A DNA stretch of 64,000 bases from Eledone cirrhosa (lineage: Eukaryota): the NCBI GenBank assembly GCA_964016885.1, contig CAXHJY010000519.1, positions 62,001 through 126,000 on the forward strand. Reading direction: 5' to 3'. A program made the translations under genes and the position numbers. The notes under the pieces were generated by a model. It was not told where the DNA came from. It was given only the letters and a program-made list of their open reading frames with translations, and made no database searches. This document shows, one piece after another, positions 50,236 through 52,095 of this stretch; the first letter of the stretch is position 1; every line of letters begins with the position of its first letter.

Positions 50236-51467
50236 ATAGCTAGATAGTTAGATAGATATTTAGGAAGGTAGATCGATAGACAGATAGGTGGAAAGATTTA
50301 TTGATAGATAAATAGTTAGATAGACAGATAGGTAGATAGAAAAATAGATAGTTAGATAGATATGTTTCTTTATTAGCCACAGGGGCACAAAAGAAGGGGA
50401 CAAATACAAAGGGGGAAGTTTACATACAATAAAAACGTGCAAAATGTTATCACAAATGGAATTTAAAAAGTTAGTCGATTTTCCCCAATAGAGGGAGACA
50501 GTTTATATGGGTAACACATACCCCCGAAAAAAAATGTGCAACCCTCATCTCCAGGAGTTCGAAGAGTTTGTACTCCTTTCCTCTCCTCCTCCTTTTCCTC
50601 AACCTACAGGCTGATATAGAGAGAAGACCCATTCACTCGGGCCATTCTCGCCACTTTCACCCACCTTTCATAAAACTTGCTGGGGTACAGCACCTCTCTC
50701 TCCATCCTGATTCTTCTTGCAAAGTGGTATTTGACAAAAAGAATCAGTTGATATATAGATAGATAGATAGGAAGATAGATAGATAGATAGACAGATAGGT
50801 GGAAAGATAGATATATTTCTTTATTAGTCACAAGGGCGCACAAGAAAACGGGACAAAACAAAGACATGCCGGGGATTTTACATACAATCGTGTAAAAATA
50901 TGAAAGAAACAAATATAACAATCGAAATCCCCAATAGGGGAGGGGAAGCGCCACAAATGGGTTGTTTAATACCCCGTCGATAGAACAACCCTCAACTTCA
51001 GGAACGTGTTGTGCAAGTGCTCCATTCTTCCTTTTGCTCTCTGGAAAGATAGATATGTTTCTTTATTAGCCACAGGGGCACAAAAGAAGGGGACAAATAT
51101 GGAAAGATAGATAGATAGTTAGATAGATAGATATATTTCTTTATTTACCATAAAGGCATAAAAAAGAAGGGACAAATACAAAAGGGGAGTTTACATACAA
51201 TCGAGTAAAAAGGGTATAAAATGAAAATAATCGAAAACAACCTCAAAAGGGAGGGGACGTGATGGGGGTTGCACACACCCGATAGTTAGATAGATATATT
51301 TCTTTATTAGCCACAGGGGCACAAAAGAAGGGGACAAATACAAAGATAGATAGATAGATAGACAGATAGATGGAAAGATAGATAGATAGATAGATGTCTT
51401 TCTTTTTTTTTTATAGATAGATAGTTAGTTAGACAGATAGATAGCTAGAGCTAGATAAATAGATAGC

Positions 51468-51500
<33 letters not shown>

Positions 51501-52095
51501 GTCTATTTTTCTTTCTTTTTTTTTAGATAGATAGATAGATAGTTAGATAGATATATTTCTTTTATTTGCCACTAGGGCATCAAAAGTGGGACAAGTACAA
51601 AGGGGGGAGTTTACACAAAAAGGCGTCCTCAATAAGGAGGAGGCAATAACAAAATATAAAAATAAAATAAGATATAACAAAAAATAAAATTTTTAACAAA
51701 ATCCTCAATAGAGAGGAGGCGCCTTGGGGGGTCGCACACACCCCCGAAAAAAGTGTGCAACCCTTCTCCTCAGGAGCACAGAGAAGGGGTGCTCCCTTGG
51801 TCTTTCATCTTCCTCACCTATAGTCTGATGTAGAGTGAAGGCCCATTCACACGGGCCATTCTCGCCACTTTCACCCATCTTTCATAGAAACGGCTGGGGT
51901 GCAGCACCTCTCTCTCCATCCTGATCCTTCTTCCGAAATGATATCGGAAGAAACGGACCAGTTGTTGGCCAGAGAGAAAGGTGCCCGACCTCAGTCCTTT
52001 CAGACGCGTCCACCATACAACCTCTTTCGCCATGGCTATTACGCACAGAAACACCGCCTCTGCTTCAGATAGATAGTTAGATAGATAGATATATA
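50236..52095. repeat. (GATA)n array interrupted by six LINE 3' ends
   Basis: Direct reading. Confidence 0.92.
50361..52066 (-). mobile_element. Cluster of six 5'-truncated Tx1/L1-like LINE 3' ends
   Basis: Copies at about 50361-50750, 50813-51041, 51055-51099, 51133-51280, 51297-51343 and 51553-52066; shared end tttgtcccc...gtgcccctgtggctAATAAAgaaa; longest copies encode MAKEVVWWTR...FFRYHFGRRIRMEREVL..F.ERW. Confidence 0.8.

Follow-up and report, generated by a model that had tools for sequence, protein, structure and literature searches.

Elements of the Tx1 clade have been described at a variety of targets, namely (TC)n, (TTC)n, (TTCC)n and (TTTC)n repeats, U2 and transposons (PMC4494074, portion available). 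Of direct concern here are the teleost families Kibi, found in (TC)n, and Koshi, found in (TTC)n, together with crocodilian Tx1 elements on (TTCC)n and (TTTC)n; like the lineage reported below they are of the APE type and use one strand of a microsatellite (PMC4494074, same portion). Compared by description with these three, our lineage differs by its target, TATCT/(TATC)n, by its host, Eledone cirrhosa, by its size of more than 21,000 ends, by the coexistence of several subfamilies and by frequent stacking on itself. In Xenopus, the target choice of Tx1L, which sits in Tx1D, is attributed to its APE domain (PMC1950540 and PMC4494074, as far as available), and APE endonucleases are established as determinants of target choice (PMC1950540, portion available). 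The GATA lineages are less strict than Tx1L and use a word of 5–7 bases, whereas their sister subfamily F resembles Tx1L in occupying one register of a complex repeat. In cephalopods, 13 recently active 'L1-Tx1' families with 421 insertions are given for Octopus vulgaris (PMC13282606, portion available), and 'L1-Tx1' repeats are annotated in coleoids (PMC8967140, portion available); these elements, likened to ours by annotation only, are probably of the same broad class and are recently active too. The main text of PMC13282606 makes no use of the word 'target', and that of PMC4494074 contains neither 'GATA' nor 'TATC'. No report of a GATA or TATC target for such elements was found in the open literature, including the accessible parts of PMC9115989, PMC8967140, PMC4640811, PMC3747384 and PMC1950540; Repbase, Dfam, subscription papers and supplements lie outside this scope and could list one. 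The preference for GATA/TATC is well supported and, within the literature searched, represents a new target for a known strategy, microsatellite-seeking elements of the Tx1 clade being already known.

The window, by which we mean the whole 64-kb stretch of DNA that was analysed (G000:C546:62001-126000), comes from a genome of 3.0 Gb. All its runs of three or more GATA units are confined to positions 50758–52091 and thus constitute a single array, the organization of which is given in Table 1. The preliminary description had recognized here six 5'-truncated LINE copies in one orientation; all six are indeed on the minus strand inside this sole array, with sizes of 43–514 bp, six separate truncation points and 3' ends near 50365, 50815, 51057, 51135, 51298 and 51555. 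It had also stated that the family occurs nowhere else in the window, which is confirmed; the matches remaining there are unrelated repeats that stem from the flank of one reference.

Table 1. Organization of the GATA array and of the inserted copies (window positions)
Feature	Position	Strand	Match
Degenerate (GATA)n, target DNA 3' of copy 1	50236–50364	.	
Copy 1, subfamily B, 386 bp: 3' UTR preceded by the end of ORF2	50365–50750	-	
GATA array including the first TGGAAAGATAGATA, which is copy 2's downstream duplication	50751–50814	.	
Copy 2, subfamily C, ~228 bp of 3' UTR	50815–51042	-	
Second TGGAAAGATAGATA, common to copies 2 and 3	51042–51056	.	
Copy 3, subfamily B, 3' tip of 43 bp	51057–51099	-	42/42 with the end of copy 1
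Third TGGAAAGATAGATA and downstream duplication of copy 4	51100–51134	.	
Copy 4, subfamily D, ~146 bp	51135–51280	-	
Upstream duplication of copy 4, 16 nt; also landing site of copy 5	51281–51297	.	
Copy 5, subfamily B, 3' tip of ~47 bp	51298–51345	-	45/45 with the end of copy 1
GATA array, two A/T-rich stubs and downstream duplication of copy 6 (51533–51553)	51346–51553	.	
Copy 6, subfamily A, 514 bp: final 83 ORF2 codons, in frame, and 3' UTR	51554–52067	-	
Upstream duplication of copy 6 (21 nt), where the array ends	52067–52095	.	

The repeated sequences on which the idea of serial insertion was built are present as claimed, TGGAAAGATAGATA at 50800, 51042 and 51100 and the 21-mer bracketing copy 6 at 51533–51553 and 52067–52087. 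Clean target site duplications are present at copies 2, 3, 4 and 6; at copies 1 and 5 the two sides match over only ~9–10 nt. The proposed direct junction of AATAAA with (TATC)n is incorrect, since (A)GAAA and two further nucleotides intervene before TATCT. Between copies 5 and 6, A/T-rich stubs are found at ~51398–51413 and 51501–51524; a comparable A-rich extension of a family 3' end was encountered at one other locus (L043). These stubs may be further insertion tips, perhaps of a seventh and an eighth insertion.

The recovery of a full-length copy, which the preliminary description had proposed as a check, was achieved by extending relatives of copy 6. These are ~5.7 kb long (5.72 kb) and encode an ORF1 of 593 and an ORF2 of 1145 amino acids, both frames being intact in at least 7 of 17 full-length copies. 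In ORF2, Pfam identifies the APE endonuclease (Exo_endo_phos, residues 23–227) and the reverse transcriptase (RVT_1, residues 512–755) above cut-off, and a zf-RVT match (residues 976–1032, E 4e-5) below it. ORF1 contains one CX2CX4HX4C motif at residues 321–337, scored by the Pfam zinc knuckle model below cut-off (E 0.051); a CCHC zinc knuckle is a feature of ORF1 in the Tx1 clade. The best relative of ORF2 with a solved structure is human L1 ORF2p (PDB 8sxt; E 5e-48, residues 8–857), and the nearest named homolog is an Argonauta hians protein with 67% identity across 48% of the region used as query. With an N-terminal APE, a central RT, two ORFs, 5' truncation and target duplications, the element carries the features by which it is to be classed as an APE-type LINE of the L1 group of non-LTR retrotransposons. 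Duplication lengths of the L1 type are common to it and to human L1, whereas it has no poly(A) at the junction, uses TATCT instead of TT/AAAA and has a zinc-knuckle-like motif in ORF1.

In a quick RT tree (76 rows, SH-aLRT support), one clade (support 99) unites the subfamilies with the Argonauta protein and a single unnamed protein; its sister is an unnamed group at ~43% identity. The whole falls within a group of 52 rows (support 95) that holds coral proteins named 'Transposon TX1' and leaves frog and fish L1-like and plant rows outside. The lineage thus probably belongs to the Tx1 clade, a name that derives here from automatically named proteins in a tree with no curated Tx1 row. It is large and young and has intact copies, which makes its targeting testable.

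Family 3' ends were counted genome-wide by exact patterns, which gave 16,792 ends of one type and 4,237 of the copy-6 type (control 53), hence more than 21,000 in total, those of the copy-4 type not included. ATCTAT follows within 0–3 nt in 11,828 of the 16,792 (70%); reversed-pattern controls gave 7 and 0, and in 400 kb of evenly spaced samples the same word has a background of 215 in 114,000 positions (0.19%). Since a repeat on the 3' side could be the element's own tail, the 5' junctions of truncated copies were examined, the junction samples being the best-scoring copies and not random ones, with four copies from the window itself, three L082 duplicates and five internally deleted copies that ran off the locus left out. 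Two TATC units lie in the last 30 nt upstream of 51 of the 71 truncated copies, against a background of 295 in 114,000 (0.26%), and TATCT or ATCTA stands at the 5' junction of 57 (background 3.2% for TATCT in 25 bases); the two units are missing upstream of the other 20, four of which are rearranged. A lack of GATA at most 5' junctions, which the preliminary description had named as fatal to its proposal, is therefore not what is observed.

A target duplication is present in 43 of the 71 truncated copies, while 28 have none of at least 8 nt. Among 23 duplications flagged by script as running into non-TATC sequence, seven were removed by eye (prefix artefacts, microhomology and one likely local duplication); the 16 retained measure 12–25 nt, with a median of 18 and microhomology included, and begin with (T)ATCT in 14 cases, the other two lying in TA runs. 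On the 3' side, 98 of 112 junctions start with ATCT, and two, three and four units are found in 79, 55 and 41, respectively; 91 have the form TAT and 19 the form TCT, and C is often exchanged for A in the target, resulting in TA runs. At four loci (L033, L043, L096 and L114) no repeat units were added at the 3' end, so that the repeat there is target and not tail. Other landing sites are TA-rich runs, minisatellites that contain the word (L025, L039) and single sites outside microsatellites (L096, L114). ATCTAT is missing after about 30% of the ends found with the broad pattern (4,964), of which the sister subfamily in the minisatellite accounts for only 350; roughly 4,600 ends have neither ATCTAT nor ACTCTAT behind them.

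The counts over the 112 junctions indicate that the element seeks a short word which GATA arrays supply in excess: the target is TATCT and not strictly a long array. The earlier notion of a GATA-specific lineage is accordingly retained for the short word but not for long arrays, since three or more perfect units follow in only 55 of 112 junctions and L096 and L114 are not microsatellites at all. The orientation is uniform in the cluster, the 3' junctions stand in one register, and the target duplications measure ~12–25 bp. With 70% of the 3' ends and 51 of 71 5' junctions, the preference exceeds by a wide margin the 20% of flanks taken as the bar for a target preference in the available portion of PMC4494074, and the register table consists of ATCT repeats, not of the (TC)n or (TTC)n of Kibi and Koshi. 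The lineage acts like these families without being filed as a member of either.

We therefore regard it as very probable that the six fragments derive from four subfamilies of one APE-type LINE lineage and came together by serial insertion, the endonuclease likely nicking the GATA strand at TATCT. Target-primed reverse transcription is established for this class. The nick would fall within one base of AGAT/A, and the 3' end freed there would prime reverse transcription from the end of the RNA. The loci L034, L038 and L096 speak for a nick immediately preceding ATCT in the element sense, which is AGAT/A on the cut strand, and the alignment with subfamily F permits one a base earlier; the position is blurred, as the first bases past the 3' end could be templated by the RNA. 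The duplication would leave the target word on both flanks of the insert, where the next element could land alongside in the same orientation, and stacks of one orientation are expected from a word so preserved. Full-length RNAs likely start with a few target-like bases, in which case a full-length insertion can add 1–3 TATC units on its 5' side. In the array described here, copy 2 is likely the oldest and copy 6 the youngest; judged from divergence, copy 2 would have come first, copy 3 would have entered its upstream duplication, copy 5 that of copy 4, and copy 6 would have arrived last.

A second mode of site choice must be weighed against this specific nick. The nuclease could be loose and nick AT-rich DNA or TpA steps, in which case it would be the 3' end of the RNA that picks the site, its target-like bases pairing with the strand already nicked. 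RNA–DNA pairing may indeed select among nicked sites (PMC1950540, portion available), and the two junction forms, TAT and TCT, fit alternative priming registers. Subfamily F accounts for 12 of 30 consecutive 3' ends on C1; its DNA is 83% identical across the 3' 1.5 kb, and its 3' ends adjoin a 72-bp minisatellite at one register. Its pattern yields up to 350 ends genome-wide; of 30 retrieved, 29 belonged to F, each of them longer than 1.5 kb, and the 5' ends of the 12 copies traced all join the repeat at one fixed position. In the quick RT tree F lies among the GATA subfamilies (support 92), which suggests a switch away from GATA. The predicted β-hairpin loop differs little between the GATA subfamilies and F and varies among the GATA subfamilies themselves, so that no clear F-specific change appeared in this loop on comparison, as a loose nuclease would allow. 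On the other hand, A and F have endonuclease domains with only ~77% identity, which leaves room for a change in the protein, L096 and L114 share only 4–5 bases with a TATC tail, and in vitro the nicks made by the Tx1L enzyme fall almost exclusively on its own target (PMC1950540, portion available). We thus judge the loose nuclease unlikely, although it is the alternative to be taken most seriously. Comparing close sisters with different targets would help to trace the residues or RNA ends that determine APE specificity, an issue relevant to the engineering of site-specific retrotransposons (PMC1950540, portion available). As to the distribution of F, its listed matches cluster towards contig ends on C1–C3 and C6; copies at L298, L299, L307–L312, L316, L321, L326 and L327 are nearly all long or full-length, and six lie in tandem over 40 kb (G000:C1:4221000-4260999).

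The reverse relation between element and array, in which insertion is broad and the element itself makes GATA arrays, as a tail or a leader later expanded by slippage, is distinctly improbable as the primary cause. The genome has ~26,000 perfect runs of six or more TATC units (174,303 minus 148,247), a number close to that of the ends, and most of the sampled arrays bear an element: among the first 22 such sites on C1, a non-random set near one contig end, 13 adjoin a family element and probably one more, and of five arrays in the 400 kb of spaced samples three clearly and one possibly lie beside family ends. Moreover, L039 gained TATC units at a minisatellite that had no TATC run. Yet 8 of the 22 arrays have no element, truncated copies lacking any leader still have TATC upstream, and the four informative 3' junctions mentioned above have no added units. 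Array creation may nonetheless come as a secondary effect in addition to targeting through a preferred nick at TATCT. GATA markers in this genome are often at active insertion sites.

The claim that the element lengthens its own target is upheld for the target duplication, each duplicated insertion adding ~18 bases of target, and for 1–3 extra units between the duplication and the element start at a few full-length 5' junctions (L152, L157, L200, L039), but not for a repeat tail. In each of the 31 full-length copies examined, TATC lies upstream, and L143–L146, four full-length copies with unlike flanks on separate contigs, have a 5' leader variant in common; at L142 and L155 there are hardly any extra units before the element start. 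A 13-nt leader common to L203 and L204 was dropped as evidence, as both loci share their flank. A modest lengthening of the target appears supported by these alignments. A tentative extension, less secure than the targeting itself, would be a self-feeding loop in which the lineage fills most long GATA arrays and also builds them through target duplication and target bases at the front of the RNA, one branch (that with ~77% endonuclease identity) having recently switched from TATCT to the 72-bp minisatellite. If so, the lineage would be the main driver of the GATA microsatellite content of this genome, and the two branches would form a natural pair for mapping a change of APE specificity.

Local tandem duplication or an assembly error, rather than six insertions, might also account for the array, the more so as copies 1, 3 and 5 have identical 3' ends over 42–45 nt, for which the mutual divergence noted earlier does not hold, and as the window lies on a small contig of 138 kb. 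Local duplications do occur elsewhere, and some stacks resemble them (L067; L082–L085; L162–L164; L203/L204). Nevertheless, copies 1, 2, 4 and 6 are only 76–80% identical to each other, and genome searches attach each of them to distant copies: copy 6 at 100% in all 40 scored among 807 candidates (copy 6 itself included), copy 1 at 98–99% to 39 other scored copies among 1487 candidates, copy 4 at 98–99% to 39 other scored copies, and copy 2 at 93–95% to its best other copies. These four thus come from different genome-wide subfamilies, which contradicts local duplication, the second outcome on which the preliminary description had staked its proposal; with the six different truncation points and the nested duplications, we consider such an origin very improbable. 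Neither an empty allele nor a spanning piece of the locus was found in the contigs of 4 of the 23 listed sequencing runs.

Stacking is common in the lineage: 34 of 105 loci have further family ends within 1.5 kb and 4 of 105 have four or more (seven subfamily-C loci without anchor match excluded), with 47 stacked ends in the same orientation and one in the opposite, chance expectation being ~2–4. Six copies in 1.9 kb represent the upper tail of this pattern. Survival of randomly inserted copies in microsatellites alone, although selection against insertions elsewhere is plausible in principle, hardly deserves credit in view of the fixed register, the 47:1 orientation, an enrichment of several hundredfold and a target pattern already displayed by the youngest, 100% identical copies.

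Several minor observations concern the family copies. At L231, L101 and L342 they adjoin others in opposite orientation, against the orientation rule. Full-length subfamily-A copies stand head to tail at L162–L164, L192, L019, L022 and L042 with 10–37 bases of TATC-like spacer, a spacing that would permit read-through transcription from the neighbour. L002 (G000:C1:283246816-283247329) is truncated at exactly the same base as copy 6 within different flanks, which may reflect shared microhomology or gene conversion. Pieces of copy 6 (window 51569–52062) with 0–1 differences occur in runs X4, X5 and X8, labelled as other organisms, the depth in X5 and X8 being low. Their presence may be due to related species, to mixing of samples or to transfer.

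Outside the copies, an inverted repeat of 72 nt (82%) at 50053–50239 ends exactly where the GATA array starts and may represent a fold-back or a MITE-like element. In run X1, opposite-strand joints were seen in contigs from ~49990 to 50232. The window contains 152 tandem-repeat rows, including large arrays at 7031–8662, 9004–9531, 36535–38973, 46765–47532 and 60360–62009 with periods of 124, 31, 64, 49 and 12, respectively. Finally, copies of a very abundant short repeat, presumably of an octopus SINE type, lie at ~49570–49690 and 45865–46104 and reach a depth in the millions in run X1.
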